This document shows, one piece after another, positions 25,878 to 56,405 of a stretch of DNA of 64,000 nt. The position numbers were made by a program, and so were the translations under genes. Each line of letters starts with the position of its first letter. The first letter of the stretch is position 1. Under the pieces are notes generated by a model. The model worked only from the letters and a program-made list of their open reading frames with translations. It ran no database searches and was not told the DNA's origin. The DNA is from a virus: positions 32,001-96,000 of IMG/VR virus record IMGVR_UViG_3300011008_000009. One strand, given 5' to 3'.

Positions 25878-26069
25878 TCATAAGGTTTTTAATACTACTA
25901 CTTGATGTTTACAAATCGGACATTTAATATAATATAAAGTACTCGGAAAAGAGGACATTGAACTTTCAGTGTCTCTCTTCTTTACATCTTCTTTCCAATT
26001 ATAAGAAAGTAAACTTTTACAAATTTTACATTCAACAAACCTGTCAGGTTCTTTAGTTACTATAATCAT
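25878..26069 (-). CDS. small Zn-ribbon protein
   Basis: CKICKS...CPICKH. It starts 2 nt after the topo-II B exon 3 stop. Confidence 0.5.
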   Translation of the reverse strand: MIIVTKEPDRFVECKICKSLLSYNWKEDVKKRDTESSMSSFPSTLYYIKCPICKHQVVVLKTL

Positions 26070-26071
26070 AA

Positions 26072-26253
26072 TTATTCCTTTATTTCTGAAAAGTCAATAT
26101 TATTAAACACGTATTCAGTTCTCGGTTCTACTCTACTGCCCATTAGCTGTTCAAGCATTTCAATACCTTCTTCCGAATACTCAATACGTTCAAGACGCTG
26201 ATATTCAGGACTAAACATTGATTTTCGCGCCGTTGCGGCAGGCAATTCACCTA
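26072..26253 (-). CDS. type II topoisomerase B subunit, exon 3 (not in the ORF track)
   Basis: My translation is (L)GELPAATARKSMFSPEYQRLERIEYSEEGIEMLEQLMGSRVEPRTEYVFNNIDFSEIKE*. This corresponds to the GyrB C-terminal KGLGEM...LMG..VE.R..FI region. Confidence 0.8.
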
Positions 26254-27212
26254 CGTATTACTCAATTATTACTAATTGTACTGACCATTTCTTCACATAT
26301 AGTGCATACCGTTTCCAATTGCGTATCAATAGCAATCGTACTCTCCAACAACGGAGATGGTCGATACAGGTTAATTATTCTTTTCTAAGTTCTTAATCCT
26401 TTTAAGATTAGTAGCTTTAAAGCTGTCGTAACTGGAATATATATTTTTAAAGTCTTCGTAAATGGTTCTTAAACTTTCACCATTTGCATATCTTAATCTA
26501 ATGCTTTCAAACTGTTGGTCACTAATTTTTGCTTTTGGGTTCTTTTCTCCTGGGTTGCTATAACTTTTAGAATTATTTCTATGCCACTCTCTATTTTCTT
26601 GTGTATTTAATTCGGGTAAAATATTTTTCCAAGTTTGCCAAGTATATACTTTTTTAAAACCGGTTTTTTCTATTTTATCCTGATATTCATAATACATTTC
26701 TCTTGTAGAGATAGTCTTGGATGCCCACAATAATCTTATTTCTATAACATCTTTTTCTGTTAATTTGTGCTTAGGATGTTTTTCGCCGTGAGTATCAACT
26801 AAATCTCCACCCGGAGTAGCATTATATCCTTTTTTAAAAGTATTGTAATAATTTATCCAATAAATTTCTTTTTCTTTTAGCTCTTCTGGTTTACATTCTT
26901 CTAAAACTTCCCATTTGAAATTTTCTAAACCATATTTTCTGAACGCTTGATACAATACTTTATCATACTCTTTATTATCACTATCAAAAGCTCTTTCTCT
27001 ATGAGATTTCCAGCGATTTTCAATATTTATAGATAACCCAATATAAGCATTATTATTAATTAAATTTGTAATTTTGTATATACCAGTCATACATTTCCTC
27101 CAAGAATAATTCTTCCCACGAGATTATCCAACTTGGGACTACCCTCGTTAGCAGTCAATGAAGACTACCCCGCCGATAAGCGGAAAAGTATGTAAGGACC
27201 AGACTACCTCTT
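26254..27212 (-). mobile_element. group I intron (topo-II B intron 2) carrying a GIY-YIG homing endonuclease
   Basis: Exon 2 ends AAA GGA U|, after U. The intron ends ...GUAAUACG|, after G. Joining gives RAKG-L-GELP, the KGLGE motif. GUAUCGACCAU and AGAAAUGGUCAG elements flank the 3' core. Confidence 0.75.
26371..27090 (-). CDS. GIY-YIG homing endonuclease
   Basis: MTGIYKITNLINNNAYIGLS...RWKSH...YNATPGG. GGAGG precedes the ATG. Confidence 0.85.
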   Translation of the reverse strand: MTGIYKITNLINNNAYIGLSINIENRWKSHRERAFDSDNKEYDKVLYQAFRKYGLENFKWEVLEECKPEELKEKEIYWINYYNTFKKGYNATPGGDLVDTHGEKHPKHKLTEKDVIEIRLLWASKTISTREMYYEYQDKIEKTGFKKVYTWQTWKNILPELNTQENREWHRNNSKSYSNPGEKNPKAKISDQQFESIRLRYANGESLRTIYEDFKNIYSSYDSFKATNLKRIKNLEKNN

Positions 27213-27411
27213 ATCCTTTTGCTCTCGTTACCTCTCCCTTTACTGTTGAACGAACCTTATTAAACTCCTCATCAGTAAAGTAGTAACTTTCTACTCCTTT
27301 ATTTTCTACTATATAAAGAGGAGATTTAAGCCAATACAGTCTACCTTCTTTTATAAAGTCTGGCGCAAGATACCATAAGTTTGCCATAATTAACAATCCT
27401 ATGTGACTTCC
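27213..27411 (-). CDS. type II topoisomerase B subunit, exon 2
   Basis: GSHIGLLIMANLWYL...LYWLKSPLY corresponds to GyrB DGSHIRTLLLTFFYR...YIAQPPLY. Confidence 0.8.
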
Positions 27412-28446
27412 CACGTTACCCATTATTTCTAATGGCGCTGACTATCTGTTACTCGTTAAAATGAGAATACTCTTTCCAATCACGTACCAATAGTGACTGT
27501 ACTTCCCTTCCGGGGAATAGTCGATACAGGCTTCATTTATTAACCCAAACCTTTTGTTTTTTCTTGTATATTGGCAGGTCTTTATAGGTGCGACCCCACA
27601 ATATTTGTTGTAATGTATTGTAACTGCATCTATCTTTAAAATCATTATAGATACTTCTTGCATCTTCATTAACGTACCGTTCTCGCATTTTTAAGACTTC
27701 TTCACTTGTAAATTTTGCGCTATCTGAATTAGAGCCATCTGTTGCGTGATATTTATAGAAATTTTTATTTTCCTCGGTATAAACTTCCATTTTAATATCT
27801 TTCCAAGTGGTTCCGTCCCAAATGGATGCGAAGCTGCTAAAACTTATTCTGTCTTGAAATTGTTTATATACTTCACGGCGTCGCATATGGTTGCCATAAC
27901 ACTCTCTAATATAAGCCACATCTTCATTAGTGAGTTTCGTTCTTCCATTATTTTCACCACGACTATTTCCGCCGCCTTCATTGCAATTATAACCAAATCC
28001 TTTATAAGTATTATAATATGCAATCCAGTATTTTTCTCGTTCATCTAATTGTTCTAATGAACATTCTTCTATAATTTCAAAATCAAAAGCATCAACGCCA
28101 TATTTCTTAATGGCTATTTCAATCGGTATATCAATTTTGTTTTTATGTTCGGAAAATCTTCTCTCTATATCATTACTTTGACCAATATATGATTTTCCAT
28201 TTTCTTTCTTAGTTATTTTGTATATGCCTATCATTGCGGCACCTCCACAATTATTAGGCTTGGGTCAATTCTGATTCCCACGGGATCTGCATGCCCACGA
28301 GGGGTTTAGCTTCTCTTATCACCATAACCTTTCGGTTTAGTTGCCCGTTAGCCTTCTATAATAATGTAGGGAATATGTAAACCCTCTCTACATTTTTCAG
28401 AAGACCCCGCTGGTTAGCGGTAAAGTATTTACGGACAGAGTTACTT
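27412..28446 (-). mobile_element. group I intron (topo-II B intron 1) carrying a GIY-YIG homing endonuclease
   Basis: Exon 1 ends GAU UCG GAU|, after U. The intron ends ...GGUAACGUG|, after G. Joining gives TDADSD-GSHI, the Toprim DxDxDGxHI motif. GUAUCGACUAUUCC and ACAGAUAGUCAG elements are present. Confidence 0.8.
27533..28234 (-). CDS. GIY-YIG homing endonuclease
   Basis: MIGIYKITKKENGKSYIGQSNDIERRFSEH...YNCNEGG. GGAGGTG precedes the ATG. Confidence 0.85.
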   Translation of the reverse strand: MIGIYKITKKENGKSYIGQSNDIERRFSEHKNKIDIPIEIAIKKYGVDAFDFEIIEECSLEQLDEREKYWIAYYNTYKGFGYNCNEGGGNSRGENNGRTKLTNEDVAYIRECYGNHMRRREVYKQFQDRISFSSFASIWDGTTWKDIKMEVYTEENKNFYKYHATDGSNSDSAKFTSEEVLKMRERYVNEDARSIYNDFKDRCSYNTLQQILWGRTYKDLPIYKKKQKVWVNK

Positions 28447-29937
28447 ATCCGAATCTGCGTCAGTTGCTATGGCAATTTTACCATAATGAAGTTTTTTGCT
28501 ATCATACTTTCCAGGCAGTATGTTCATGGCGCTTAACAGTAACTTTATCTCTTCGTTCTTAAATATTTTTTCTTCATCATTGGACAACGAATTAATCATC
28601 TTACCACGAATTGCCATAAGACCATACTTAGTTATATCTCTTGCCCGCGACAGTCCGCCTAACGCCGAGTCTCCCTCACAGATAAGTAAGGTACTGTCCT
28701 GTCCAAGAAACTCTGCGTCTTTCAGCTTATCGCTAGCAAACACTTTTTTCTTCTGATTTTTCTCGATATCCTTTGTAGCATCAAGCACAGCCTGTCTTGC
28801 CTTTTCAGCCGCCTTTTCAGCTTTCTGAATCTTATTCATCATTTCGATGATACTATTAAATTCACCACTATGTTTAAGCGCAAATTCATCAAGTCCAGAC
28901 TTAAAAGCCGTACTAGCTAAAGTTCTAAGATTAGGATTATTTATTTTAGACTTGGTCTGATTAGCAAAAGAGGGGTTAACTACTTTGCAGTTTATCGCAT
29001 AAACCAGACCCTTACGAATGATTTCGGGATCGAACTCCTTCTTGGACAAACGCTTCATAGAGGTTGTAAAAGTAGTTTTCGCGCCTGTAATGGGAGAGCC
29101 ACCCTCGCTGCAAAAAAGTCCGTTGACAAATACATAGCTGGCACCCGGACCATCTGTCCACATAAAAGCTACTTCTACTTCATCAGTATCATCTTTTGCT
29201 GTTGTAATGATTGGCGCAGACATCAATGGTTTTTTGACATTGTCCTTAATAAAATCGCCTATACCATTTTCGGAATAAAACTCTACTGTTTTTCCAGTAT
29301 TAACCAAACCAACTTTAAAATGTACACCTTTATTAAGATAAGAAATATTTCTTATTTCATTACATATTCTATCATAAGAAAAGCCGTCAGTCATTAATTT
29401 AAATACTTCGGGGTCTGGAATAAACTCTACCTTTGTGCCAGTATGGGCGCTTGTATTGGGTATTTCTTCATAATTTACGAGTATTCCTTTTTCAAAGGTA
29501 GCAGTAGCCTGCTTCTTTTCTCGATAGGAAGTAACGACAAAATTTTTAGAAGACATACATACCGCGGTTCCGCCTATACCATTCAATCCAGAAGAATTTT
29601 TGTATGCATTTTTGTCAAATTTTCCTCCAGTATGACTTTCGGTATAAATAGACACCAGAATATTTCTTCCGTCTTTAATACCAAAAGGTACTCCTCGTCC
29701 GTCGTCTATAATTGTAATTTTATTGTTTTGTTCATCAACAGCTATGGTTATTAAATTACCATATCCTGCCAATGCTTCATCTGTAGAATTGTTGACTATT
29801 TCTTTAAATGCTTGATAAATACCATCGGTATCATCAGAACCGAGATACATCTGTATCCTTGAACGCATAGCTTCACGCGTTTCTAAGTGTCTTATGCTAT
29901 CTATACCATAATTATCCATTCGCATTCTCCTTTTCAC
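28447..29937 (-). CDS. type II topoisomerase B subunit, exon 1 (GHKL ATPase, transducer, start of Toprim)
   Basis: EIVNNSTDEA, IDDGRGVP, GLNGIGGTA, then CEGDSALGG...IAIATDADSD. Confidence 0.85.
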
Positions 29938-29948
29938 TTTATAATAAT

Positions 29949-29977
29949 ATTATACCATAATATAACGAAAAAGTCAA
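29949..29977 (-). promoter_or_regulatory. sigma70/sigmaA-type promoter upstream of the topo-II B gene
   Basis: Minus strand reads TTGACT-17 nt-TATAAT. Confidence 0.7.
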
Positions 29978-29995
29978 GGGATTTGACCCTTGACT
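29972..29995 (-). terminator. rho-independent terminator whose 3' arm and T-run form the next promoter's -35 box
   Basis: agtcaaggg-6 nt-cccttgact is a 9-bp stem. The minus-strand RNA continues UUUUU. Confidence 0.7.
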
Positions 29996-30003
29996 TAATC
30001 GGT

Positions 30004-30345
30004 TTAAAGTATATTCAGATACTTAAGTAAGTTTCTATACTCTCTGTCTAAAAGCAGCGAATCATCTTCGGTATCATCTTTCTTGAAAGTTCCTTTTACG
30101 CTATATTTTATAATAGGAATTTCACCGTACTTTTCAAAATACTTTTCGGAAAGATTTGCTGCCTTATCTATGAGTTCCTGTATCTCTTTCTGCTTACTTT
30201 CTTTCTCTGCCTTCAGCGCTGCCTTTCTCTTGTCTTCCGCCGCCTTTTCAGCATTGGCTATACAATCGCGTTCGCACTGGTTTCTTTCAGCTACGGTGTT
30301 GTATCTCTTACCACATATTCCACAAGTATAAATCTGTTCTCTCAT
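30004..30345 (-). CDS. small Zn-finger / coiled-coil protein
   Basis: CGICGKRY...ERNQCERDC followed by a K/E-rich helix. Confidence 0.55.
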   Translation of the reverse strand: MREQIYTCGICGKRYNTVAERNQCERDCIANAEKAAEDKRKAALKAEKESKQKEIQELIDKAANLSEKYFEKYGEIPIIKYSVKGTFKKDDTEDDSLLLDREYRNLLKYLNIL

Positions 30346-31517
30346 TTTTTAATACCTCTCTTTAATAATATTATTGTAGTGAAACCTATTGTATATAATC
30401 CAAGTAATACCCAAAGTACCGGCATATATGCTCCCGTAACACCAAATACAATAGAACTAATATTGTTACCTACTAATCCTGCTATTCCCCAAGCAGTTAA
30501 TGACAGTCCGTGTATTGCACTAAGTCTGTTCATTCCATAGATATCAGATAACAATGTTGGCATATTACTAAAGCCAGCGCCATAAGTGCTAGAAATAATG
30601 CATAGACCAATAATAGTAACTATAATATTCTGTGTTAATAGCATAAGTACCATTGTGGCTACGGATATTAGAAAAATTACTAAGTAGATGTTCACTCTAC
30701 TATTAAGTTTATCAGAAATTGCGGAAAAAGTCAAACGTCCGAGTCCATTGCAAATTCCCATAATAGCAACTGCTGTTGCCGCGAGTCCAGGACCACAATT
30801 AATTGATACTAGTAAAGGAGATGCAATAGATATTAACGCTAGACCACACGCAATATTTAAAAAGAACATTAACCAAATTTTTCTAAATTTGCTGTCCTTA
30901 AACATAGTTAAAACTTTAAAATCATCTTTTGTAGTTTGTTCTACATAATTAGGCGGTCGCTTAATTAGTATAGAAGCTAATATTAAAGGTATTACTGATA
31001 TGGCGGCAAAACCTAAAAATGTAACAGTTAGATTAGTTGTTTCAAGTAAAAAGGTAAGTATAGGAGTAGCTATTGTACTTGCAAAACCAAAGCCCATAAT
31101 TGCTATTCCAGTTGCCACACCTTTGTGTTCAGTAAACCATAGCATTAGGTTTTTAATAGGTGTTAAATATCCTATGCCAAGTCCACATCCCATAAGAACA
31201 CCATATCCTAAGTATATAAGCCATATGGATTGCAACCAAGAGCCGAGCGCCGTAACGAGCAGACCGCCGCAGAAGAACAGCACACATAATCGAGAGCTTA
31301 GCTTAATATTGTGTTCAACTAATTTACCCAAGAACGCTGCCGACATTCCAAGAAAGAATATAGCTAAACTAAATGCGAACTGTACCCAAGCCACTGACAT
31401 TCCGACAGCCGCCGTTACGGGGTTTACGAGTAAACTCCAGGCATATACCGAGCCTATTGTACAGTGGATACATAAAGCTGGAATGGCGCCATGTATCCAT
31501 TTTCCTAATTTTCCCAT
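30342..31517 (-). CDS. MFS transporter, oxalate/formate antiporter (OFA)-like family
   Basis: About 12 hydrophobic segments. SVYAWSLLVNP and GLGIGYLTP...WFTEHKGVATGIAIMGFGFAS resemble OFA-family signatures. The start at MGKLGKW is preceded by AAGGAG and overlaps the nrdG stop. Confidence 0.75.
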   Translation of the reverse strand: MGKLGKWIHGAIPALCIHCTIGSVYAWSLLVNPVTAAVGMSVAWVQFAFSLAIFFLGMSAAFLGKLVEHNIKLSSRLCVLFFCGGLLVTALGSWLQSIWLIYLGYGVLMGCGLGIGYLTPIKNLMLWFTEHKGVATGIAIMGFGFASTIATPILTFLLETTNLTVTFLGFAAISVIPLILASILIKRPPNYVEQTTKDDFKVLTMFKDSKFRKIWLMFFLNIACGLALISIASPLLVSINCGPGLAATAVAIMGICNGLGRLTFSAISDKLNSRVNIYLVIFLISVATMVLMLLTQNIIVTIIGLCIISSTYGAGFSNMPTLLSDIYGMNRLSAIHGLSLTAWGIAGLVGNNISSIVFGVTGAYMPVLWVLLGLYTIGFTTIILLKRGIKK

Positions 31518-31999
31518 AAAACAACTTCTCCTTTTAATAGTGATTCTTGCACATCTATAATGCATTGATTGCTTGAACCTCTAAATTTTAGTGTAATATC
31601 TCGCTTATCTATCTCAAAAGGTCCGTCAACCAAAACGTCTATATATTGTAGTATTCTTAAATTTTTAGATAGTTGTTCAAAAGTAAAACCAGTATAGCAC
31701 CAAATAGTTTTGTCTTTATACTCATTCTTTATATCCTGTAAAAAAGATAATAATGTTTCATTACTACTATGATATATAGGGTCGCCGCCGGTTAGTGTTA
31801 AACCTTTAATGTAAGGATTTTTTAATAACTGTTTAATATTATTAATTTCAGCTTCTCCAAAAGGCTTTCCTGCATTAAAGTCCCAACTTTCTGGATTATG
31901 ACAACCTTTACAATGGTGGTCACAGCCAGAGAGCCAGAGGGTTACTCTGACTCCTGGACCATTAGCTACATCAAATTCATCTATTGCTAAATAATTCAT
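31505..31999 (-). CDS. nrdG: anaerobic ribonucleotide reductase activating protein (radical SAM)
   Basis: GCDHHCKGCHN is the CxxxCxxC cluster. GLTLTGGDP. It starts 2 nt after the nrdD stop. Confidence 0.85.
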   Translation of the reverse strand: MNYLAIDEFDVANGPGVRVTLWLSGCDHHCKGCHNPESWDFNAGKPFGEAEINNIKQLLKNPYIKGLTLTGGDPIYHSSNETLLSFLQDIKNEYKDKTIWCYTGFTFEQLSKNLRILQYIDVLVDGPFEIDKRDITLKFRGSSNQCIIDVQESLLKGEVVLWEN

Positions 32000-32001
32000 A
32001 C

Positions 32002-32493
32002 TTACCTCTTCCAGTTCGGTAATTCTTTTGAGTGCTTATATCTCATTTCAACTTCTTGCTGTTTACCTTTATTAAAAGCAGTTGTATAATTTCCTGTTAA
32101 ATAACCTGTTACTCGTCTTAATCTGCTAATGTCTGCGCTTCCACACTGTGGACAAACCTCATTAATTTCATCAGTATAACCGCATTGATTACACATATCA
32201 TTAGGAACATTAATAGCAAAATAAGGAACGTCCTTATCCATAGCGTAATTTACTAATGTTTCAAGTGCTTCGAGGTTATTTTTTACTGTACTTTCTAACT
32301 CTACATAAGTTATGCATCCAGCATTTGAATAATTAACGAGCTGTGCTTCTATATCTATTTTCTCAAAAGGATTTAATTTTTTCCATACCGGAACGTGCAT
32401 AGAGTTAGTGAAGAACTCTTTATCAGAAACATTCTTTATAATTCCATACTTTTCTTGGAATTTCTTCATCGCGGTATAGCATAAATTCTCAGC
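32002..32493 (-). CDS. nrdD: class III (anaerobic) ribonucleotide reductase NrdD, exon 3
   Basis: The frame is open upstream of the track ATG and reads AENLCYTAMKKFQEKYG. A Zn-ribbon CNQCGY...CPQCG follows, then the glycyl-radical motif RRVTGYL. Confidence 0.85.
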   Translation of the reverse strand, partial: AENLCYTAMKKFQEKYGIIKNVSDKEFFTNSMHVPVWKKLNPFEKIDIEAQLVNYSNAGCITYVELESTVKNNLEALETLVNYAMDKDVPYFAINVPNDMCNQCGYTDEINEVCPQCGSADISRLRRVTGYLTGNYTTAFNKGKQQEVEMRYKHSKELPNWKR

Positions 32494-33445
32494 CGTTTTT
32501 ACCCTCGGTTTCCCGATATTTGATAGGGGACTAGACTATATTATCATCTTATTATCTTTCTCATATAATAAGAGCCTTATCTTTTGCTTTATCAGCTACT
32601 CTACTCGCTTCTTCACTTTAGATTTTAACTAAAGCTATGCTTTCGATAGTCGTTAGAGAACAAAACCTTTTTCATCATATTCTTTAAGAAATCTATAATA
32701 GTAACCTTTTCTTGGTTTAGTTTTTAGTTTGTGGTTGCATTGGTACAAGATACCAGTTTTTGTCATACCAGTTTCTCTTGTTGCTTCACCAACCGAACCA
32801 TATTTTTTTATAAGATTAAAATTAAGGTCGAATTGACATACTGCTATAGATTGATTATCATCCCAACTCTTAGCATTTACTGCTAGCCCATCTCTATAAG
32901 CGCCTTGAGTGTTTTCTTGGACCGTGCCCCATTTGAGATTTAAATAATTGTTATTAGTTTTATCATTATCTAAATGTAACACTATTGATTGATTGTTAGG
33001 ATTTGGAACATAGGCCTCGGCAACCAATATATGTACTCTTCTTTGTCTTTGTCCAGTTGGATAAGTTATATTGCAATAACAATATCCATTACTTTTATTA
33101 ACAAAAACTGACTTTTTAAACATTTTATTATTGCCGTAATCTTTGTAAATTTGACCGTCGGGAGTAATATAATCTGTATTACTGTCTTTTATTAATCTTA
33201 GTTCTTCGGTTATTAAGTTTTTGTCTATTAGTTGATTTTCCAATTTTCTTTTAGCCATTTTTATCACCTCACTTTAAAGTGAAAGGTAACTTATTATACT
33301 CTAAAGAAAATCTGTGATAAGGTTTTATCCTACGGGATTAGCCTGCCTTACGGTTTAGCCTCTCTTACCATCTTATTACGATTGCCCGTTTAATAAGGTT
33401 ATTTTTTCACATAATCACTTATGCGACACCCAATCTGAGAGTTTT
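32494..33445 (-). mobile_element. group I intron (nrdD intron 2) carrying an HNH homing endonuclease
   Basis: Exon 2 ends ACA CCU|, after U. The intron ends ...GUAAAAACG|, after G. Joining gives YYTP-AENLC, equivalent to E. coli YSTPSENLC. CUAACGACUAUCGAAAGC and GAUAAUAUAGUCUAG elements are present. Confidence 0.8.
32653..33258 (-). CDS. HNH homing endonuclease
   Basis: HILVAEAYV...VLHLDNDKTNNNYLNLKWGTVQEN is the HNH core. The C-terminus has an IENR/HTH-like GSVGEATRETGMTKTGI. The start at MAKRK follows GAGGTGA. Confidence 0.8.
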   Translation of the reverse strand: MAKRKLENQLIDKNLITEELRLIKDSNTDYITPDGQIYKDYGNNKMFKKSVFVNKSNGYCYCNITYPTGQRQRRVHILVAEAYVPNPNNQSIVLHLDNDKTNNNYLNLKWGTVQENTQGAYRDGLAVNAKSWDDNQSIAVCQFDLNFNLIKKYGSVGEATRETGMTKTGILYQCNHKLKTKPRKGYYYRFLKEYDEKGFVL

Positions 33446-33967
33446 AGGTGTATAATATACTCCAAAATTCAGCTTATACTTTTGCTTAAATTCTGCACAT
33501 CTAGTTTTGAATAACTGTTCAATGCGCTTAGCCAGCTCCATTCCTTCGGGTTCGGTATGGTCTTTACCAATTAATATCTGTAAAGTTTCTGCCAATCCTA
33601 ACTGACCAATAGCAAGTGTTCCGTGCTTTAACGCACTACGAATACCCTCTTCGGGTTTGTAGCCAAGCATAAGACCGTTTTCGTACATAAAGGTCGCACT
33701 TTCTTCGTTTTGAGAACAAATCCACTCAAAGCGCTCTATTAATGTATCTTTTGCTTCGCTTATCTTTTTATCAAGTAATTGTAGGAACAGAGAGGAAATG
33801 TCATTGTCATATTCATAATTACACAATTCTTTAGCCATCATAGCAATAGTTGGCATAATAATGGTAACAGGACAAATATTTCCACGTCCGTCTTTAGTTT
33901 GCGGGTTAACGCCTTCTTCCGCATTAATATCGGCGCCATTGTATGTACGACAACCCCTTGTCGTAAT
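33446..33967 (-). CDS. nrdD: class III ribonucleotide reductase NrdD, exon 2
   Basis: ITTRGCRTYNG...DGRGNICPVTIIMP corresponds to E. coli SPMGCRSFL...GRNNLGVISLNLP. Confidence 0.8.
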
Positions 33968-34801
33968 CATTAGACTATGTCATCTTCCAATATTGTAATA
34001 ACCTTTATTGGAAGCCTATCGTTTTGGGGACAATGGACCCCTACTCTACTCACTTCTTCATATTAGTATTTTTCTAATATTATGCTTTCGATAGTCGTTG
34101 AGCTTTTAATATTAATAAGTATTACTTAAAATATCTACGAACACCAATTTTTCCTAAATCTTTATGGTGCCAATCTTTATAAAACCAACCTCTATTAATT
34201 GAAGCCTGAATGGTATTTCTTGACATAGGATAATCTATCAATAAATCTTCTCTACTAGAATATTCCTTGATAAGACTTCCAGTACTATAATCAAACACTT
34301 GATAGTAGGCATCTCCAGAACGGTGAGGTACATGAACGTGACGTAAATCGTTTCTGAAAGCGTGTAAATCATTTTCACTTCTTGTTACCCATTCTAAGTT
34401 ATCAGCCGCATTGTTTAATTTATTACCATCTTTGTGATTTACAACTAATTCTTCTTGGTAGCCATCACAAAAGTGATACGCAACCAAACGATGTATAAAA
34501 AAACGTTTCTTTACCGGAGCATATAATACTACTCGTCTATAACCACAAGTATTTATATCTCCTTTAAGTATTTGTTTGGTTTTATAATTTCGCACATTTC
34601 CTAAATTACTAACTTCATAATAGGTTTCATAATTTTTAATTGGTTTCCAAATTTCTTTCATACGCCCAATTCCTCCTTAAGAATATGGCTTTTATTAATA
34701 TATTTAGCACACGAGTAACGTCTTAGACGCTTCCTCCGTTTAGATAGGTTTATTTATACTACATTACTGTAGCAGACCACAGGTTGGTTTATGGTCGATA
34801 C
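33968..34801 (-). mobile_element. group I intron (nrdD intron 1) carrying an HNH homing endonuclease
   Basis: The RNA contains CUAUCUAAACGGAGG...CGUGUGCUAAAU (T4 td-like P3-P6 region), CUCAACGACUAUCGAAAGC and GAAGAUGACAUAGUCUAAUG| at the 3' end. The proposed join is KTY|ITTRGCR, with U before the 5' splice site and G before the 3' splice site. The 5' junction is less certain, by a few nt. Confidence 0.7.
34122..34661 (-). CDS. HNH homing endonuclease (NUMOD4-like N-terminus)
   Basis: EIWKPIKNYETYYEVSNLGNVRN...HRLVAYHF...VNHKDGNKLNNAADNLEWVTRSEN. AAGGAGG precedes the ATG. Confidence 0.85.
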   Translation of the reverse strand: MKEIWKPIKNYETYYEVSNLGNVRNYKTKQILKGDINTCGYRRVVLYAPVKKRFFIHRLVAYHFCDGYQEELVVNHKDGNKLNNAADNLEWVTRSENDLHAFRNDLRHVHVPHRSGDAYYQVFDYSTGSLIKEYSSREDLLIDYPMSRNTIQASINRGWFYKDWHHKDLGKIGVRRYFK

Positions 34802-37003
34802 ATAGGTTTTCGGATCCTCTCTGTTGTATCCAGCATTAGTGGACCAGTCTACATTAGCATAATTAGGATAAAGTCTTTTCGCAGTTGACCGTAATGCTAA
34901 TTTAAATAAATCATAATTTGGGTCTCCAGGCTTTCTATTAACTCCTATCATACACTGGAAAATTCCACAAGGAAATACAGGTGTTTTATGAAGTTTACCT
35001 ACACCCTTAATAGAACCGTGTAAAAGAGCCTCGGTCACCATTCTACCTTCGGTAAGTGTACAAGTACCATAGTTGATAGAAGTAAAAGGAAGCTGATTTC
35101 CTGCTCTACTTTGAAGAGTATTTAGGTTGTGATACATACTCTCAGCAGCTTGTTCGGTTTCTTTTATGGTGTGTTTAAGAGCGTACTTATACGCCTTATC
35201 ACAGCTATAAACTTTTCTATCATCTATACTAAATTTATCAATAGCTTCATAAGGAGGAAGCTGATATTTTGTAAGTAAATTTTCTTTTTCATCTTCCAAG
35301 TCAACATCTTCTATAAATGCAAGTGCATCTATATAGTGTTTATAAAAACTCTTTCTTACAAAAGGAACCATTGTCCAATCTAAGTGCGAAGCGGATACTC
35401 CACCGAACTGCTGAAGGCTCTGTAATTGGAAGATAACAGCTAAAAGTTGAAAAGCTGTATTAATAGACTGAGGCGGGCGCACGTCTGTCTGTCTAGTATT
35501 AAATCCTTCTTTAAATAGTTTGTCAAAGGGAATTGTAAGGCAATTACCAGTTGGAATACCATTCTCAAGAACAAAAGCATGTTCATCTTCTACATTCAAA
35601 CACCATACATCGTGTAATTCGGTGTCCTCTTGAGTTATATCCTTTACATACCAATTGAATTTATTTGAATGTTGTCCAAAAAATTGATAATTTTTAGTGT
35701 ATCCTCTAACAGTATAGTTGGTTTCTTGCCCAGTCTTATCTTTTATTGAATTTACATACAAACCAGCAACTGGGAAATATTCTTCCACAAAATCACATAA
35801 TTCTTTGCTTGTAAATTGGATGCTATAAATAGGTTTTCCCGTAGTAGCGGAAACGCTATGAGTTCCGTCAGCATCGTACAAACCGTGGATAAAACTAATT
35901 AGACATTCCAATGGTAGATTGGTGAAATCTGGAATGGTTTTGTCATATTTAATACCTGTAATTTCCGGCTCTTGTGAAGAACAATTTAAACCATATCCTA
36001 TTTCTTGGAAACGATATAAATATTTCGCTTTATCCTTACATAATTTTACTTTAGTGAAATTTGATTTATAATATTTCTTTTCTTTTTTAGAATATCTTGT
36101 TTCAATAATTCCGTCCCCCATAATAAAACCATAGCACCAATATTCTTTTCCGAGTAAACTTAAAGATTCAAAATCAAAATCTTCCCAAAACCACGGAGAG
36201 TCTAAAAGTTTATCATTAATAGACAATCCTTCTTGGAAGTCCCCGTCTATATTTATCCACCTGTGGTCTTCTGTTGATTTTATGGTTATTTCTGTCCTAT
36301 TCTTTTTTAAAGTATAAGACAATAATTTTTGTTTTCCATGGTAGTTTACAGTTGCTTTCCTCCAAACTCCACTTGGAGTTAGCACAGTAACGATATCCCC
36401 GTCTTTAAAATTACTAAAAGCCTTAACTCCTTCAGAGGTTATAAATCTTGTAGAGGGGTCGAAACAGTTATGCGAACCAACTGCGTAATCAGTTAAATCG
36501 TGTATGTAAATGATATTGTCTATATGATTACGGCGCGAAGTCTCTGACATATAATCTTCCAATGCTATTTTCTTCATCAGCAGATCAGTTACTTCACCCT
36601 TTCTACCATTAAAAGACTTTTCATCTACGTTAGCGTTTTGGTGTTGAGGGTCTGCCGCCGTTAATTTCTTCTTAACGTCCTTCATTAAAGAAGCATATCT
36701 ATCTCTTGCTAAAGCGTGACGATAGCGATAGGTAATGAAGTTTTTAGCCATTATCTGGTCATACTTCATTAACTCTTGTTCTATAATATCTTGAACATCT
36801 TCTATGAAAACTTGCTCACCATATTTATCTGCTACTATTTGTGTGATTTCTTCTGTCATTTTCCGCAAATCTTTTGAGAAATCTTTTGTTGAGCATTCGG
36901 GATAGGTGTCGAGCGCGGCATTGGTGAGAGCATTGTAAATTTTACTTGGGTTAAAAGATACTTTACTTCCATTTCTTTTGATTGCATATTTTGTTGTACT
37001 CAT
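34802..37003 (-). CDS. nrdD: class III ribonucleotide reductase NrdD, exon 1 (ATP-cone and N-terminal barrel), interrupted in frame by an intein
   Basis: ATP-cone YAIKRNGSKVSFNPSKI. ...YIHDLTDYAVGSHN[intein]CLTIPFDKL. The track ORF tail after ...KTY (34754-34801) is read-through into the intron. Confidence 0.85.
35543..36466 (-). mobile_element. intein (308 aa) with a LAGLIDADG endonuclease domain inside NrdD
   Basis: Starts CFDPSTRFITSEG (block A). STEDHRW is block B. YGFIMGDGI and IHGLYDADGT are the LAGLIDADG motifs. Ends FVLENGIPTGN, followed by extein Cys. Confidence 0.85.
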
Positions 37004-43184: not shown

Positions 43185-44924
43185 ATGTTACAAGAAGTTA
43201 GAAACATTAGCGGTTATTATATTAATGATGCTAACAATATAATAAATAACGCCAATGCTAATATTTTGGAATATAATTTCGCGCAGGTCATACAAGACCC
43301 AGATAATATAGTAAAGTACATAAAGGTAGTTTCGTCTGAGGATTTTAATAGCTTAGAGTTAAGAAATGATACTTTGTATTTTATTAATGATATTAACGAA
43401 GAAGTCTCTGAGGTTACAGATATACTTGATATTGCATTAAGTAACTACGGAAGTGAAGATGGTGAACCTAACACATTATGGGTATTAACCGTAGATTACG
43501 AAATGGAAATGGTTTATCTATGGAGTAGCGCGGTTAATAAAGGACTTTTTACCATTCGTAAGGTTTGGAAAGGTTTTAAAAATGGCGCGATGGCTTTTGA
43601 TGGAACGTGGGATTATGTTAGAGGAAAAGATTATAGTGTACTTTACACTGAAGCCGAACCTTTTGTAGTCCTTATCCGTAATGATGATAAGCTATTTGCT
43701 TTTCCAAGTTTAAATTATAAAACCAGTGGTGGAACCTATGAAGCTAAATTAATTGCTCCCGCCGAGTCCGAAACCGAAGCAACAGTAACCTATGTTAGTG
43801 TGGATAAGGGATACGGATCAAAGCTATTTAAAGATACCGATATGGGTATGGTTATCTGCTTTATTCAAGCAAATTCTGGTAGTTATAAAATTGCTTACTC
43901 AATGTACACCTATCCAGATGAAAATACCGATACCAAAGAATTAATAGGACCAGAGACTATATTCACTCAAAATGAAGCAATTACTCAGGTAACGGTTCGG
44001 CGTCTAAATGACTATCGAGTTGGTATTACATATAATTACAATAAGACAGTAGATGGTACTTTAACCTATAAAACTGGTTTTAGATATAGTAGAAGAGAAT
44101 ATTCGGGAGTTGCTTTTCACCCCGAATTTTTTGAAATAGAAAATAAATTTCGACCAAGTAGTATACTATATGGCGCTGTAAGAACAGATAATAAGAATAC
44201 AGTACCAGTACCTAGATTAGTTTTGGAAAATGATAGGCGAGATAATAGTTCAACACTATATTTCCAACTTGGTTTAGGTAGCGAACTAAATCTACAATTA
44301 GTCAAATTAGAGGCTTTAAATCCTAATGACCCTAATAGCAAAGGCGCGATCACGTTATTTGCCGATGCAGGATTTGAAGTGGTGAATGATTATCCTTATG
44401 GTTATTACGAAGTAGATGGAACACCTTCTAAAGCTGAAATTGAATGGATAAGAGCTGAGGGTACAAGATTAATTGTTAAATTAATGGGCGATAAAATGCC
44501 CTTAACGCCTTTTGTGTTACAGCCTAATTATCAATCAACTTATAGCTATTTGCTTCGCTTTGATGGTAGTGTAGATAAACAGCAACAGCATGGAGATGTT
44601 AAAGGTTGGTTTGCATTTACTAATGGAACTTCTTATGAGTATAAGAAAAATCCAAAAAGAAGTTGGGGAGCTTCTGCAGATGAAATCTTTTGGGGATTAG
44701 GCACTAGCACATTTCAAGTAGATTGGTCCAGTTGCTTTTATGCTACTTTTATGACCTCAATAACTATTGGTGTAGAATTAGGTTTTTATCATTCTACTTA
44801 TAATAATAATCATATGGACTCTGTTCAATTTATTACTCCTACCTTGTCAGAGCCTTATATTCGTCTTAATGTAACAAGCAGTTACTCTAATGTTATGAGT
44901 TCTGGAGGTATTATAGATGTTTAA
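43185..44924 (+). CDS. hypothetical structural protein
   Basis: 579-aa ORF in a tightly packed + strand array. No motif recognised. Confidence 0.65.
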   Translation: MLQEVRNISGYYINDANNIINNANANILEYNFAQVIQDPDNIVKYIKVVSSEDFNSLELRNDTLYFINDINEEVSEVTDILDIALSNYGSEDGEPNTLWVLTVDYEMEMVYLWSSAVNKGLFTIRKVWKGFKNGAMAFDGTWDYVRGKDYSVLYTEAEPFVVLIRNDDKLFAFPSLNYKTSGGTYEAKLIAPAESETEATVTYVSVDKGYGSKLFKDTDMGMVICFIQANSGSYKIAYSMYTYPDENTDTKELIGPETIFTQNEAITQVTVRRLNDYRVGITYNYNKTVDGTLTYKTGFRYSRREYSGVAFHPEFFEIENKFRPSSILYGAVRTDNKNTVPVPRLVLENDRRDNSSTLYFQLGLGSELNLQLVKLEALNPNDPNSKGAITLFADAGFEVVNDYPYGYYEVDGTPSKAEIEWIRAEGTRLIVKLMGDKMPLTPFVLQPNYQSTYSYLLRFDGSVDKQQQHGDVKGWFAFTNGTSYEYKKNPKRSWGASADEIFWGLGTSTFQVDWSSCFYATFMTSITIGVELGFYHSTYNNNHMDSVQFITPTLSEPYIRLNVTSSYSNVMSSGGIIDV

Positions 44925-46596
44925 TACAGAAAAACAAAATTGTATAGAATGTCATAATAAATATGAATTTATTGTTTTAGATGAAAATAGAGAAGTCGTT
45001 GAAAAAGGAACTTACTATAATTCCGCTGACTCTGGAGTATATGCAGAGGAAATTGGAAGTTCCAAAACTAATTCTACTACTGTTAATCTTATCTATACAC
45101 CGCCCGAAGGAGAAGAAAGTACTACTGGTTTCGGAGTAAGTTTTAGTAAGGTTAATGCTGAAACTATATATGATTTTGGAGATACTATTGAGTTTGTTGG
45201 CTCATTAGAAATTTCTTCTAATCAGTTGATAGGTAGTATAAGTAAAATAGCTTTAGGTCATGGAAAAAGGAATGAAGATGACGAAGAGTCAAATGAAGTT
45301 AAATATTGGTCAGAAACTAATTGTAGTATTAGTATGGGTGAAAAAAACACTCTAATTCTGAATATATATTTAAACTTTAGCGTGTTGGCGCCGAGTGGCA
45401 AAAGATATGACAAAAAATTTAGTTCGTTGTTGAATAACGGATACAATTATTTTCCGACCCCAGGCGCGCTTTCTATAGAAATAAGTTCTGTACCAATAAG
45501 TGGATTACCTTCTCCACTTGCCAAAAGAGTACCTACCTTTATGTCATTACCTACAACAACAGAGTTAGGAGATTTTAGTTCTCCTTGTTTTATTAGAAGA
45601 AATCCTAGTAATTTGGAAGACCAAGAAGGGGTATTGTTTTTACCCTCTGTGGGTGTCAAAAAAGTATACGGTTTTGGAGACAAGAGTAATTTCAATTGTG
45701 GAATTATGGAAACTATGGTCTTTCCAGATATTGGCGCATCAACCTTTACCGCTTCGGGAGCAGGAGGCGGGGTATTTACAACTATTATACCCGTCGTTAA
45801 ACTTTACGCACAGGATTTAAGAGAGTTATCAGACCAAAATACTGACCAGTATTTCTACTGTGCAATACCTAAGTGTTGTTTATTAGAAGAGACGCAAATA
45901 GTAGTAAACAATACAGTTATAGAACCAGGCAGTATTACTTTTACTGACCCTAGTGAATTACATACAATTGGGGTTACGGCAGTTGGTATGACTTCTGATG
46001 AGCAAGTAAGTATCAATACTTATCGAAATACGAATGTAGGTTCCAGTTATGCCAATTATCTCTTTGAGACTGATGGTTACTGGGAGCCGCCAAGCGGATC
46101 GGCTGTTAGTCCTACTTATGTATATTTAGCATCGGCGCCAAAATATGTAGTAACAGGAGCAAATATTAGTTGCTCATTCCAAGGGAAGAATGTAAATACA
46201 GACGATTGGGAAAGTATTGGTTCTGCATCAAGATATGATAAAGTAACTCTAAATTATGACACTTCATTATATAACGCTTACCGAGCTATAGTGTCGGCGC
46301 CGAGTAGTAGCAGTACAGGATATTATCTAAACGAAACAGAAAAAGTAGTTTTATCTTTAAAATCATATGACGAAATGATTTTGAGAATTGGTGACGAGTC
46401 CAATAATTTTACTAGAACAGGTATTAAGATTACAATTGGACAAATTAATACTTGGCTTGCAGCGATGGGAGCAGACCAATCAAAGACAGCCTATACGGTA
46501 GGCTTGCAGGTTACAATACGTAATGCTATGTTTAAGTCTGCTAACACCGTAGCATATATGCAATATAATGTTACTACAACGGGGGCGAGTGTATAA
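44917..46596 (+). CDS. hypothetical structural protein (N-terminal HNxYE family, member 1)
   Basis: N-terminus IECHNKYEFIVLDENREVVEKGTYYNSA is shared with the next two ORFs. GGAGG precedes the ATG. Confidence 0.65.
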   Translation: MFNTEKQNCIECHNKYEFIVLDENREVVEKGTYYNSADSGVYAEEIGSSKTNSTTVNLIYTPPEGEESTTGFGVSFSKVNAETIYDFGDTIEFVGSLEISSNQLIGSISKIALGHGKRNEDDEESNEVKYWSETNCSISMGEKNTLILNIYLNFSVLAPSGKRYDKKFSSLLNNGYNYFPTPGALSIEISSVPISGLPSPLAKRVPTFMSLPTTTELGDFSSPCFIRRNPSNLEDQEGVLFLPSVGVKKVYGFGDKSNFNCGIMETMVFPDIGASTFTASGAGGGVFTTIIPVVKLYAQDLRELSDQNTDQYFYCAIPKCCLLEETQIVVNNTVIEPGSITFTDPSELHTIGVTAVGMTSDEQVSINTYRNTNVGSSYANYLFETDGYWEPPSGSAVSPTYVYLASAPKYVVTGANISCSFQGKNVNTDDWESIGSASRYDKVTLNYDTSLYNAYRAIVSAPSSSSTGYYLNETEKVVLSLKSYDEMILRIGDESNNFTRTGIKITIGQINTWLAAMGADQSKTAYTVGLQVTIRNAMFKSANTVAYMQYNVTTTGASV

Positions 46597-48794
46597 TGGA
46601 TTTAAGTCTTTTAAACCCCGATATTCAAATAACTAATAATTATTATTTTACATTAAAAAACTCAGAGGGAAAGGTTATTCAACAAGAAGTTGTTCATAAT
46701 GAAGCTCAATGGAAAAAATATATTAGACACCGAATGACAAGTTTAAGTTTATATTTAGGAATTTTTACTGAACGAGATGCTTTAAGATATCAGACTAATG
46801 GATATTGGAATGAAGGATATGCTGCACAAATTAGTGGAAAAACCATAAAAGACTCAGAGGGTAATGAGATTTTTATACCAACTGGTGGTTATACTGTAGA
46901 ATCAGGCAAACAGTATAAAGTAGGTGAGCCTAATGTAATATTTAAACCAAGTATGAAAAAAAATCCTTCTTCGTTATTTGGTACACAAGTATTTGCAGGA
47001 TCAATGAGTTGGTCTTGTGATAAAATATTTAAAAATGATGAAGGTTATTGTGTAAGATACGTGGGTAAAACCACTTGGGGATATCATAGTGACACTAATC
47101 CTTATAATCAATATCACGAAGGTTCTGGCAGCGCAAGCAGTAGTAATGCTGGTTTTGACTTTAGTGAACAATCACCAAACGAAAATAAATTTGGTATAAA
47201 ACTGTTTGATGGTGGGTTAGGCTCTCGTAATTTTGGCTTATTTACTCACTTCGCTACAAGTATGATTAAAGCTCCTACTGATATTCTAGAAATTAAAGTT
47301 GAAGTTGTTTTTATGCGAATAAAAATCGGTATAGCTGGCGGCACACCGATAGCTCCTTGTATGAACGCAGGATTTGGTCACAGTCTTAATTCTCCTAATT
47401 CTTCTTTAACTAGTTTTTATCCATCTACCTTTGGTGTTTCAGTGTATCCAACATATAGGGTGCAAAATATTGATGAAGTACCTGATGATATGACGGATTT
47501 TCAAACTGCAATTACTGGTAACATCCCTCCAATAGGAAGTCATAGTCTATTTAGTTTATCTAGTTATGACGTATACGATCAGTGGTTAACTACTGATACT
47601 CCAACAGATTGGGATGAAGAAACAAATGGAACTTGGTATGGTTTTCCATTACATCTTAATACTCATTGTGAAGGCTGGTCTCCTTATGTAATGCGTACTG
47701 AAATTTTAAAAGATGGTACTGAAGTTAAAAAATATGTTTGCGACACTGACGGAACACGAAGAATATCTTTTGGTGAGTTAGAACAATCAACTGTATTGAA
47801 ATACAGAAGTTCTTGTATTGGACCCATTTCATGCACTTTGATAAATGGTTTTACTACTTATGGTAACCAGAATCTTGTGCCACAAAATGGAGATAGTCAT
47901 ACAGTTACTTTTATAAATATAGGTTATGGAGATGGAGTAAGAACTAGATTTTATCATCCTTTTACAAAAGGAATAATTAAAGCCTATTATACAGTTGGTT
48001 CATCAATGTATGATGCACAAACCATTAACTATTATCGCACCTCCGATAATATATTTGCAAGATACCCTAACTTCTCTTGTTATAGAAATGGAGAAAAACT
48101 TTTTAGTCATCGACCTAGAAGTGTTGATGGTTCTCCAAGTTTACCTATTAATAATAGAATTTTTAATGAAGATTTAGCAGATAGAAAAAATATTGAGCAC
48201 CCCTACTCAGCTTATCAAAACTATTTTCCCGAAAGTAAACAGACTATTTTTGGTTTACATCCTTTTGATAATAATTACTATCCAATTAGAGGATTATTAG
48301 GGAAAAGCGAAATCGTAGTTCATGACTTTATTACTGCAGGTAAGATTATCGGTAGTGGCTGGAATGGACTTGACCGTGACCAATGGTGGTCGGCGCCAAT
48401 GCATATTATAACAGGTGACAACGAGGACGAGGTTGGACAAGGAATAGGACGAGAAATAGTGCTTCAATCTTTTCCTTCTCAGCACGATGAAACCAGATTT
48501 AATTTTGAATGTGACCGATACGTAGGTTTTTATGGTGGCGAATACTGGCAACTTGGTAGTGCTTACGCTGGAGGATTAAGATATGCAGGATATACTCCAA
48601 TGTCGGTAAGAATAACCGAAGGACGGGATAATGATGTAGAAGGTTATATAGAATTTGACCAACCGGTCCCTGCTAATGCCAAAGTATATGTAAATGTTGA
48701 TTTTAGTGGAGTTTCATTTTTGGGCAGCTTCTCAGAAGTTAGTGGTAAAGGATACTTTTCATTAGGGTCAAAGAAAGACAATGGTAAATCTTAA
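46596..48794 (+). CDS. hypothetical structural protein (N-terminal HNxYE family, member 2)
   Basis: N-terminus IQITNNYYFTLKNSEGKVIQQEVVHNEA. Confidence 0.65.
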   Translation: MDLSLLNPDIQITNNYYFTLKNSEGKVIQQEVVHNEAQWKKYIRHRMTSLSLYLGIFTERDALRYQTNGYWNEGYAAQISGKTIKDSEGNEIFIPTGGYTVESGKQYKVGEPNVIFKPSMKKNPSSLFGTQVFAGSMSWSCDKIFKNDEGYCVRYVGKTTWGYHSDTNPYNQYHEGSGSASSSNAGFDFSEQSPNENKFGIKLFDGGLGSRNFGLFTHFATSMIKAPTDILEIKVEVVFMRIKIGIAGGTPIAPCMNAGFGHSLNSPNSSLTSFYPSTFGVSVYPTYRVQNIDEVPDDMTDFQTAITGNIPPIGSHSLFSLSSYDVYDQWLTTDTPTDWDEETNGTWYGFPLHLNTHCEGWSPYVMRTEILKDGTEVKKYVCDTDGTRRISFGELEQSTVLKYRSSCIGPISCTLINGFTTYGNQNLVPQNGDSHTVTFINIGYGDGVRTRFYHPFTKGIIKAYYTVGSSMYDAQTINYYRTSDNIFARYPNFSCYRNGEKLFSHRPRSVDGSPSLPINNRIFNEDLADRKNIEHPYSAYQNYFPESKQTIFGLHPFDNNYYPIRGLLGKSEIVVHDFITAGKIIGSGWNGLDRDQWWSAPMHIITGDNEDEVGQGIGREIVLQSFPSQHDETRFNFECDRYVGFYGGEYWQLGSAYAGGLRYAGYTPMSVRITEGRDNDVEGYIEFDQPVPANAKVYVNVDFSGVSFLGSFSEVSGKGYFSLGSKKDNGKS

Positions 48795-48806
48795 TAACGT
48801 AGGTGA

Positions 48807-50645: not shown

Positions 50646-51068
50646 ATGGCAACTCGTAATTTAGACTTCTCAGACGAAGTCACACTTGGTGATAATCAAT
50701 ACAACAGTATAGTTATAGATATACCAACTCATCAAAAAGATACTAAACTCTATGATTATGGTTCGATAAAAAGCAATACCGTTCCTCCATTCTTTACTCT
50801 AAAAAGAGGAAATATTACTTTTGGAACTCCCGAAAGGGATTATGATAGGTTAGAAGGTGTACACCCAGTAGATACAGTTGGAAAGCAAAGTAAACCAATC
50901 ACTAATTTCTTTACATATAGTATTAAAGTTTTTCCACATTTCGGTGCCTATGGGTTTGTCAACTACAGTAGTCCCGAAGCTGAAGAAGAAGATAAAGTAA
51001 GTACGATTTTCTTTGGTGACAGTGCAGCTACTTTACGAGGGGAGATAAAGTTAGATGAGATTGAGTGA
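50646..51068 (+). CDS. hypothetical protein
   Basis: 140-aa ORF starting 1 nt after the upstream stop. Confidence 0.55.
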   Translation: MATRNLDFSDEVTLGDNQYNSIVIDIPTHQKDTKLYDYGSIKSNTVPPFFTLKRGNITFGTPERDYDRLEGVHPVDTVGKQSKPITNFFTYSIKVFPHFGAYGFVNYSSPEAEEEDKVSTIFFGDSAATLRGEIKLDEIE

Positions 51069-51882: not shown

Positions 51883-51931
51883 AAATTAGAGAAATCTAAC
51901 AGCAACCCTACTTTATATAGAGGTGATAGCA

Positions 51932-52282: not shown

Positions 52283-52292
52283 GGAGATAATT

Positions 52293-54785: not shown

Positions 54786-54796
54786 GGAGGTTAAGT

Positions 54797-56404: not shown

Positions 56405-56405
56405 T

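Follow-up and report, generated by a model that had tools for sequence, protein, structure and literature searches.

Why would a phage carry a gene for a membrane transporter directly behind the genes of its anaerobic ribonucleotide reductase (RNR)? This question is raised by a 64,000-nucleotide stretch of viral DNA (IMG/VR record IMGVR_UViG_3300011008_000009, positions 32,001 to 96,000; the whole stretch is hereafter called the window), in which a gene of the major facilitator superfamily (MFS) follows nrdD and nrdG, the genes for a class III RNR and its activase. Transporters are unusual as phage cargo, and no case is known of one that serves the ribonucleotide reductase of a phage. An earlier note, made from the sequence alone, had placed the gene in the oxalate/formate antiporter (OFA) family and proposed that it supplies formate to the reductase. 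The analysis reported here leads to a modified form of that proposal, in which the gene probably encodes an importer of formate for nucleotide synthesis by the phage. I infer all three parts of it, namely the substrate, the direction of transport and the benefit to the phage.

Family, fold and predicted binding site of the carrier

The encoded protein matches the Pfam MFS_1 model (88.7 bits, cutoff 33.4, E=4.6e-25), and its AlphaFold2 model, built with 23 homologues, shows 12 long transmembrane (TM) helices and one short amphipathic helix (pLDDT 89.4, pTM 0.85). The top Foldseek matches are all MFS proteins. The 12-helix MFS carrier described in the earlier note is thus borne out, and the motifs it had listed are present as GSVYAWSL and GCGLGIGYLTPIKNLMLWFTEHKGVATG.

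Among the curated NCBIfam models, the top match was NF049980, which describes L-lactate MFS transporters of the type of the Syntrophobacter fumaroxidans monocarboxylate transporter SfMCT (260.6 bits, below the equivalog cutoff of 320). The OFA subfamily model TIGR00890 gave 164 bits against a cutoff of 374.85, and TIGR04259, the equivalog for the oxalate:formate antiporter OxlT, 110.3 bits against a cutoff of 335. Five further members of the subfamily showed the same ordering, with 235–292 bits on the SfMCT model, all below 320. A sequence search of the PDB likewise returned SfMCT (5e-23) and OxlT (5e-20), and Foldseek ranked SfMCT (TM-score 0.83–0.87) before OxlT and the human monocarboxylate transporters. 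These best matches also speak against membership in a drug-efflux subfamily, which the earlier note had named as an outcome that would undo its proposal. Homologues of the transporter number in the thousands, those nearest to it (53–99% identity) being mostly metagenomic, and JGI and NCBI name the family to which it belongs "OFA family".

In SfMCT, the carboxylate-binding site involves Tyr119, Asn276, Arg280, Tyr331 and Phe335 (PMC6573034). The equivalent residues of the window protein are Y117, N257, R261, Y312 and F316, all invariant in alignment A1, so that the protein possesses a carboxylate site of the SfMCT type. Four other pocket residues of SfMCT are changed (L28V, L145F, F359L and C362W, corresponding to Val24, Phe143, Leu340 and Trp343), and the lactate-specific pattern is therefore not retained. 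The segment N257-G-L-G-R261 aligns with N268..R272 of OxlT and preserves the Arg272 motif, again invariant in A1. However, in OxlT the second carboxylate of oxalate is bound by Lys355 in TM11, a residue conserved in the OFA family together with Gln34 in TM1 (PMC10070484). These are replaced in the window protein by Trp343 and Val24, both invariant across the subfamily, so that it lacks the residues expected of an OFA member. The presence of a tryptophan in place of Lys355 suggests a monocarboxylate rather than oxalate as the substrate.

From these features, the transporter is predicted to be a monocarboxylate carrier of a sister subfamily, neighbouring OxlT and the lactate carriers of the SfMCT type. 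The OFA assignment of the earlier note holds as far as a carboxylate-type carrier is concerned, with SfMCT, the OFA subfamily and OxlT as best matches, but scores below both the TIGR00890 and TIGR04259 cutoffs and the lack of Lys355 and Gln34 argue against the family proper. The label would fit only in the loose sense of NCBI and JGI naming, and the protein is predicted not to be an oxalate:formate exchanger.

An intact gene under selection, overlapping nrdG

As the earlier note had observed, the start of the transporter gene is embedded in the end of nrdG: the nrdG stop codon ends at 31505 and the transporter ATG stands at 31517, which leaves 13 nt shared by the two genes; a Shine-Dalgarno-like AAAGGAG lies 10 nt before the ATG. 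The longest reading of the open reading frame (ORF) would begin at 31565, also within nrdG. The gene has the same position in the relatives L001–L003 (L numbers denote the loci collected for comparison).

Compared with its nearest metagenomic relative, L001, the gene shows 44 synonymous and only 2 non-synonymous differences, a ratio of non-synonymous to synonymous substitution rates (dN/dS) of 0.013, while the adjacent nrdG diverges more. The transporter gene is therefore real, intact and under strong purifying selection. With phage genes on both flanks, it has the properties of an auxiliary metabolic gene.

The DNA identity between the window (28453–32493) and L001 (564–4611) is sharply mosaic, with 93–99% in nrdD exon 3 and the MFS gene, and only 55–75% in nrdG (~70%) and the 5' half of gyrB. 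This mosaic points to recent recombination that kept the transporter.

Recurrent linkage to class III ribonucleotide reductase genes

Genomic contexts were looked up in IMG/VR, GTDB genomes and JGI metagenomes. Scanning IMG/VR with the transporter protein alone returned no match, and an alignment-based scan was required. The nrdD-nrdG-MFS arrangement recurs in no fewer than 17 lineages of uncultivated phages. Tight strings of the three genes occur in the window, L001/2, L004/5, L006, L012/13, L014, L015, L038, L174, L327 and L330, and in most of these the nrdG stop and the MFS start overlap by 1–14 nt. The order NrdD-MFS-NrdG is found in L138 and L189, and MFS-NrdD-NrdG in L022, L082 and L119, the last being a bona fide bacterial locus, with looser linkage in L016, L170 and L077. 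Among IMG/VR matches of at least 49% identity, 7 of 8 are linked to RNR genes. In a neighbour-joining tree (L085, a wrong-frame ORF, was disregarded), RNR-linked transporters are spread over four or more distinct branches, interspersed with cellular genes that stand alone, suggesting that MFS and RNR genes were joined repeatedly.

Some of these loci carry further genes. In L327, L330, L014 and L038, an Aminotran_5 gene (a NifS/IscS-like cysteine desulfurase) lies 1–5 kb from nrdD-nrdG-MFS; its product may support the Fe-S cluster of NrdG, and its presence fits an "RNR support" module. In another phage context, L026, a formyltransferase gene lies directly upstream of the transporter. In L082 (9983–11172), the transporter beside nrdD-nrdG is split into two ORFs of 160 and 230 amino acids, possibly a pseudogene or an assembly error.

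The linked reductase is of the formate type

The earlier note had left its proposal dependent on the active site of NrdD, the thiol-dependent type counting against it. The reductase was classified after PMC4493059. In the formate-using NrdDs of E. coli, phage T4 and L. lactis, a finger-loop Met partners the bottom-face Cys (PMC4493059, PMC4390871). The window NrdD, once spliced at the inferred sites described below (763 amino acids), has the finger loop STMGCRT, the bottom Cys in SHNC and the glycyl-radical motif RRVTGY. Its best matches in the PDB are the NrdDs of Prevotella copri (2e-108), S. thermophilus and phage T4 (1e-76), with just 7e-11 for that of T. maritima. By its Met-Gly-Cys finger loop with a single Cys, the window NrdD is thus predicted to be of the formate type, and not the thiol type. 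The same Met-Gly-Cys finger loop was found in 12 of the 14 linked NrdDs examined.

Regulation of cellular homologues

Since the gene neighbourhoods of cellular homologues were uninformative, upstream regulatory DNA was examined at all 253 MFS loci collected. A ZMP/ZTP riboswitch (Rfam RF01750, pfl motif) scored above the gathering threshold directly upstream of the transporter in L215, L221, L132 and L244, and L156 carries the same element by sequence. The leaders show a promoter, the aptamer, an overlapping intrinsic terminator, a ribosome-binding site and then the MFS start codon, with the transporter as the first downstream gene. The ZTP riboswitch is an ON switch, responding to a deficiency of 10-formyl-tetrahydrofolate (10-formyl-THF).

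The same loci were searched for tandem boxes of the repressor NrdR, defined as two 16-mers separated by a 15–16 bp spacer and with invariant C4/A6/A8/T9/T11/G13 (PMC13584703, PMC12051234). Only 5 matches were found in 3.8 Mb of loci, with ~0.13 expected by chance upstream of MFS genes. Tandem boxes lie directly upstream of the transporter in L122 and L141, both Ruminococcus metagenome-assembled genomes (MAGs), and in L145 (Chakrabartyella piscis), where the second box is weak. Those before nrdD in L119 act as a built-in positive control. In L027 (8651–8697), tandem boxes (GCACAATATATAGTGG, a 15-nt spacer, ATACTATATATAGTAT) precede a phage operon in which the transporter and an NAD-dependent ligase are among the later genes, and this operon has apparently been placed under the host's repressor, which senses deoxyribonucleoside triphosphates (dNTPs). 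In L215 (~5920–6140) and L156 (before the MFS gene at 5235), an NrdR-like box, a promoter and the ZTP riboswitch stand in one leader, which would give dual control by dNTP and 10-formyl-THF status.

The regulated homologues are 41–46% identical to the window protein, and 11 of 12 pocket positions are identical, with an I/V exchange at the twelfth. With a pocket so nearly identical, the same substrate is expected for both. Control by ZTP and NrdR suggests a carboxylate whose import is switched on by a shortage of 10-formyl-THF and regulated together with RNRs, and formate fits this best. The subfamily would thus be tied both to 10-formyl-THF supply and to dNTP synthesis, with formate at their junction.

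Proposed role

I propose that nrdD, nrdG and the transporter gene would be transcribed as one unit during infection, with the carrier made by translational coupling to nrdG. The carrier would enter the host membrane and import external formate together with protons, as SfMCT does with lactate. The imported formate would then serve as the stoichiometric reductant of the formate-type class III RNR of the phage, at one formate per dNTP, and also as a one-carbon donor for purines and thymidylate, through the formate-THF ligase (Fhs) of the host. As part of this explanation taken as a whole, which accounts for the data better than any other considered here, formate is favoured as the substrate of the subfamily.

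The formate supply proposed in the earlier note has gained independent support, because cellular homologues with the same pocket have ZTP riboswitches and NrdR boxes, and it agrees with the formate-type NrdD of the window phage. What did not hold is that the supply of reductant is the whole explanation, as the contexts described next show.

Observations against the proposal, and alternative explanations

A number of observations weigh against a formate importer. The best curated model describes an L-lactate transporter, and formate was not among the substrates tested on SfMCT. The window gene itself has neither a ZTP riboswitch nor NrdR boxes upstream, and clustering the flanking ORFs of 80 GTDB loci identified no recurrent metabolic partner beside the cellular homologues. 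The transporter is found in none of the 80 IMG/VR phage loci most similar in NrdG. It also occurs in other contexts. In the phages L011 and L018, it is kept, with 76–86% DNA/aa conservation, together with a Thermotoga-type NrdD (NCCR/SCCR; 1e-144 to PDB entry 4COI), and the thiol-type NrdD of T. maritima is not expected to use formate (PMC4493059). In the bacterial MAGs L086 and L087, a class II RNR gene immediately precedes it. The transporter of L331 comes after the genes of an entire nicotinate-to-NAD (Preiss-Handler) pathway, and in the rumen phage loci L019–L021, L025 and L027 it is followed by the NAD-dependent ligase LigA.

The absence from the 80 closest NrdG loci indicates that class III RNRs of phages can in general function without the transporter; it is an accessory to a minority of phage RNR modules. 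In the same 80 loci, no FNT (formate/nitrite transporter) gene or other membrane protein of at least 200 amino acids adjoins nrdDG. The co-occurrence with nrdDG expected from the earlier note is accordingly real in many lineages, but does not extend to these closest relatives in NrdG.

As for the contexts with other reductases, they imply that formate as class III RNR reductant cannot be the sole link. Retention of the transporter beside thiol-type and class II RNRs may be explained by the one-carbon role of formate, which would still apply there. Synteny links L011 to L012, and L018 to L014 and L038; these relatives have a Met-Gly-Cys NrdD, and the RNR cassette alone has been swapped. The MFS gene stayed through the swap and diverged as fast as the backbone, with DNA identities of 77.5% (L011/L012) and 85.6% (L018/L038), and its dN/dS between L011 and L012 is 0.18.

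The thiol-type NrdD cassettes (L011 5155–9203, on a 198-kb contig; L018 ~7200–11164, on a 140-kb contig) are flanked by genes for a thioredoxin-like and a FeThRed_B-like protein, the latter of 65 amino acids and resembling the catalytic subunit of ferredoxin:thioredoxin reductase. By sequence, they look like self-contained, redoxin-dependent class III RNRs in phages. In L086 (5090–8798, and the same in L087), the RNR is of the B12 type with an ATP-cone and is separated by 76 nt from the transporter, in a chromosomal context that includes FabV and SecA. For at least one of these two MAGs the taxonomy or binning is doubtful, because they are labelled Opitutales and "Ca. Spyradenecus" yet have 99% identical RNRs.

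The alternative that survives best, though I consider it unlikely, is a general L-lactate/pyruvate:H+ symporter that sustains fermentation, energy or reducing power, with only an indirect link to nrdDG. Pyruvate could be converted to formate by pyruvate formate-lyase (PFL), or yield reduced ferredoxin through pyruvate:ferredoxin oxidoreductase, and so serve either type of RNR, which would account for retention beside thiol-type and class II enzymes. The SfMCT L-lactate model does top the scores of every member tested, and the nearest structures are SfMCT complexes. However, all these scores (235–292 bits) lie under the equivalog cutoff, the four pocket residues listed above differ, no lactate or pyruvate genes recur beside cellular homologues in the 80 GTDB loci, and control by the ZTP riboswitch indicates a precursor of 10-formyl-THF instead (PMC2864571).

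Next comes the possibility of a passenger gene, or "moron", acquired from a Firmicute host into an insertion-tolerant early region of DNA metabolism, with a role unrelated to nucleotides such as pH, membrane potential or superinfection exclusion. Most phage nrdDG modules do lack the transporter, its gene contexts vary, and the clade also includes cellular genes without such neighbours. I regard a passenger as quite unlikely, given the repeated independent joining to RNR genes, in three gene orders and with overlapping stop and start codons, the purifying selection that persisted over 22% DNA divergence and despite exchanges of the cassette, and the NrdR and ZTP control of cellular homologues.

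Import of nicotinate, or of another heteroaromatic carboxylate such as orotate, could rebuild NAD+ or nucleotide pools, and thereby feed an NAD-dependent ligase or counter an NAD-depleting defence. In the phage-like contig L331 (386–6185), the transporter has genes for PncA-like, PncB and fused NadD/NadE proteins directly upstream of it, and its start overlaps the gene in front. A nicotinate phosphoribosyltransferase gene is found four genes upstream of the transporter in L026, phosphoribosyltransferase genes flank it in L325, and the LigA loci mentioned above also agree with such a role. SfMCT binds aromatic carboxylates (PDB 6ZGS, 6ZGR), and the window protein has extra aromatic pocket residues, F143 and W343. 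When the association was tested in reverse, the transporter was present in just 1 of 28 phage PncB loci in IMG/VR; moreover, niacin fits neither NrdR nor ZTP control, and in the window the ligase is ATP-dependent and genes for NAD salvage are absent. This explanation is therefore improbable. As a separate observation, 28 further IMG/VR contigs (L332–L359) carry PncB, often with PncA and NadD/E, and nicotinate-based NAD synthesis seems widespread in phages.

ZTP and NrdR control, taken by itself, says only that the substrate is a one-carbon or nucleotide precursor, which could be a folate or formyl-folate fragment, glyoxylate or glycolate. The lone carboxylate site, Arg-based and set in a compact SfMCT-like pocket with an aromatic lining, the absence of any relationship between the window protein and known folate carriers, and the strong association with formate-type NrdD make such a substrate very improbable. 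Finally, an OxlT-like oxalate:formate antiporter or a formate exporter is hardly credible: the "OFA family" name given by JGI and NCBI and the rank of OxlT as second-best structural match favour the antiporter, but the residues for second-carboxylate binding and the gate latch (Lys355 and Gln34; PMC10070484) are Trp343 and Val24, TIGR04259 reaches 110 bits against a cutoff of 335, and a riboswitch that is ON at 10-formyl-THF shortage argues for import.

Phage context and interrupted genes

The window clearly derives from a large phage, with genes for a tail fibre, a RuvC-like resolvase, dUTPase, primase, DnaB, the DNA polymerase III alpha subunit (PolIII alpha), RecJ, PhoH, a ligase and gyrA/gyrB, and with many homing endonucleases. 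The phage infects anaerobic gut or rumen bacteria. Megablast found no close relatives among GenBank phages, and tblastn gave just 22–27% identical matches in unannotated records. Features of the transporter locus and its surroundings are listed in Table 1.

Table 1. Coordinates of the transporter gene, the neighbouring RNR genes and other features in the window.
Feature	Coordinates	Strand	Remarks
MFS transporter gene	30342..31517 (stop codon included)	-	391 aa, starts MGKLGKW; predicted SfMCT/OFA-like monocarboxylate carrier
Shine-Dalgarno-like AAAGGAG	31528..31534	-	within nrdG 3' end
Cys-rich/coiled-coil ORF, 113 aa	30004..30345	-	start overlaps transporter stop (ATGA); kept only in closest relatives L001-L003
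nrdG	31505..31999	-	class III RNR activase (radical SAM); TIGR02491, 188 bits vs cutoff 126
nrdD exon 3	32002..32494	-	glycyl-radical domain (RRVTGY) and Zn ribbon
nrdD intervening sequence 2	32495..33446 (+/-1 nt)	-	HNH-type endonuclease ORF 32653-33267; missing from L001
nrdD exon 2	33447..33956	-	starts inside finger loop (..M|GCRTY)
nrdD intervening sequence 1	33957..34790	-	HNH-type endonuclease ORF 34122-34661
nrdD exon 1	34791..37003	-	ATP-cone and N-terminal half of barrel
LAGLIDADG intein, 308 aa	35543-36466	-	in nrdD exon 1 at SHN|C, the conserved bottom-face, catalytic Cys
gyrB	25900-29937	-	two insertions
gyrB insertions	27412-28452, 26254-27209		each with a GIY-YIG endonuclease ORF
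PolIII-alpha (dnaE)	4021-13482	-	seemingly fragmented: PHP/NTPase 11545-13482, HHH_6 6915-8375
Endonuclease ORFs in dnaE region	10443-11357, 8464-9453, 4021-5046		GIY-YIG and HNH types, interleaved
BspA-type leucine-rich repeat protein, 827 aa	40459-42942	+	LRR_5, 200 bits; opens rightward gene block
Rightward block	43185-57776		most large ORFs without Pfam or PHROG match

The boundaries of the nrdD exons were placed from the DNA at the junctions and by comparison with the relatives L001, L005 and L006, in which introns are wholly or partly lacking. For the first intervening sequence, the inferred splice ..ACCAU^ / G^GGGUUGU restores S-T-M-G-C-R. The nrdD gene of L001 has no second intron, and its first lies a few nucleotides away from that of the window. 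Neither nrdD nor gyrB gave an Rfam match to group I introns at E<=0.01.

The two nrdD intervening sequences have a common 3' core with a GACTAT/ATAGTC pairing. The gyrB insertions also have a common core, distinct from that of the nrdD introns, and gyrB is uninterrupted in L001. Homing elements are unusually heavy in the replication module of the window phage.

Significance

If the proposed role is correct, this would be the first phage-encoded transporter known to supply a substrate for reducing ribonucleotides and for nucleotide synthesis that depends on one-carbon units. A further implication would be that, in gut and rumen anaerobes, the replication of phage DNA is limited by the availability of formate, a key cross-feeding metabolite. 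A broader claim, which I put forward tentatively, is that the whole MFS subfamily may be an unrecognised, dedicated formate importer of anaerobic Firmicutes, belonging to the NrdR and ZTP regulons, captured several times by phages and wired into their RNR operons. OFA members other than OxlT are all uncharacterised (PMC10070484), and formate import would provide a function for a large "dark" branch of OFA/SLC16-like carriers, and add a transporter to both the NrdR and the ZTP regulons. The thiol-type and class II RNR cases would then argue for a dual role of formate, as reductant and as one-carbon donor.

In the literature searched, no paper connected nrdDG, NrdR or the ZTP riboswitch with an OFA/SLC16-like or MFS transporter, and none described a phage nrdDG-transporter cassette. 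The parts are of known kinds (MFS carriers, class III RNRs, auxiliary genes of phages), while their combination and the regulatory evidence appear to be new.

Comparison with known systems

The closest characterised relative of the carrier is SfMCT, an SLC16 homologue and L-lactate:H+ symporter (PDB 6G9X/6HCL; NF049980), which is its best match by hidden Markov model, sequence and fold. Both have the 12-TM fold and the conserved carboxylate residues, and neither has a second basic residue. The two proteins are however only 23% identical, and SfMCT is not known with RNR linkage, ZTP or NrdR control. OxlT of Oxalobacter formigenes (TCDB 2.A.1.11; PDB 8HPK), for which formate is a physiological substrate, shares the clan, the fold, the TM8 N-G-x-x-R motif with Arg272, and Tyr124. 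It differs in Lys355 and Gln34, which the window protein lacks, so that oxalate binding in the manner of OxlT and obligatory exchange are not expected. The FocA/FNT formate channels have the same proposed role, to move formate across the membrane of fermenters, but are pentameric channels of an unrelated fold.

The ZTP-riboswitch regulon includes purH, fhs and pfl, as well as glyA and folD. Cellular homologues of the transporter come directly under its control, as do the formate-producing pfl and the formate-consuming fhs. The phage copy differs in having no riboswitch, and the literature search found no transporter of the subfamily named as a target.

Phage T4 carries a group I intron in its nrdD. 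It resembles the window phage in encoding a formate-type NrdD together with its activase. In T4, the PFL of the host supplies the formate and the phage encodes no transporter, whereas in the window phage a carrier is coupled to nrdG.

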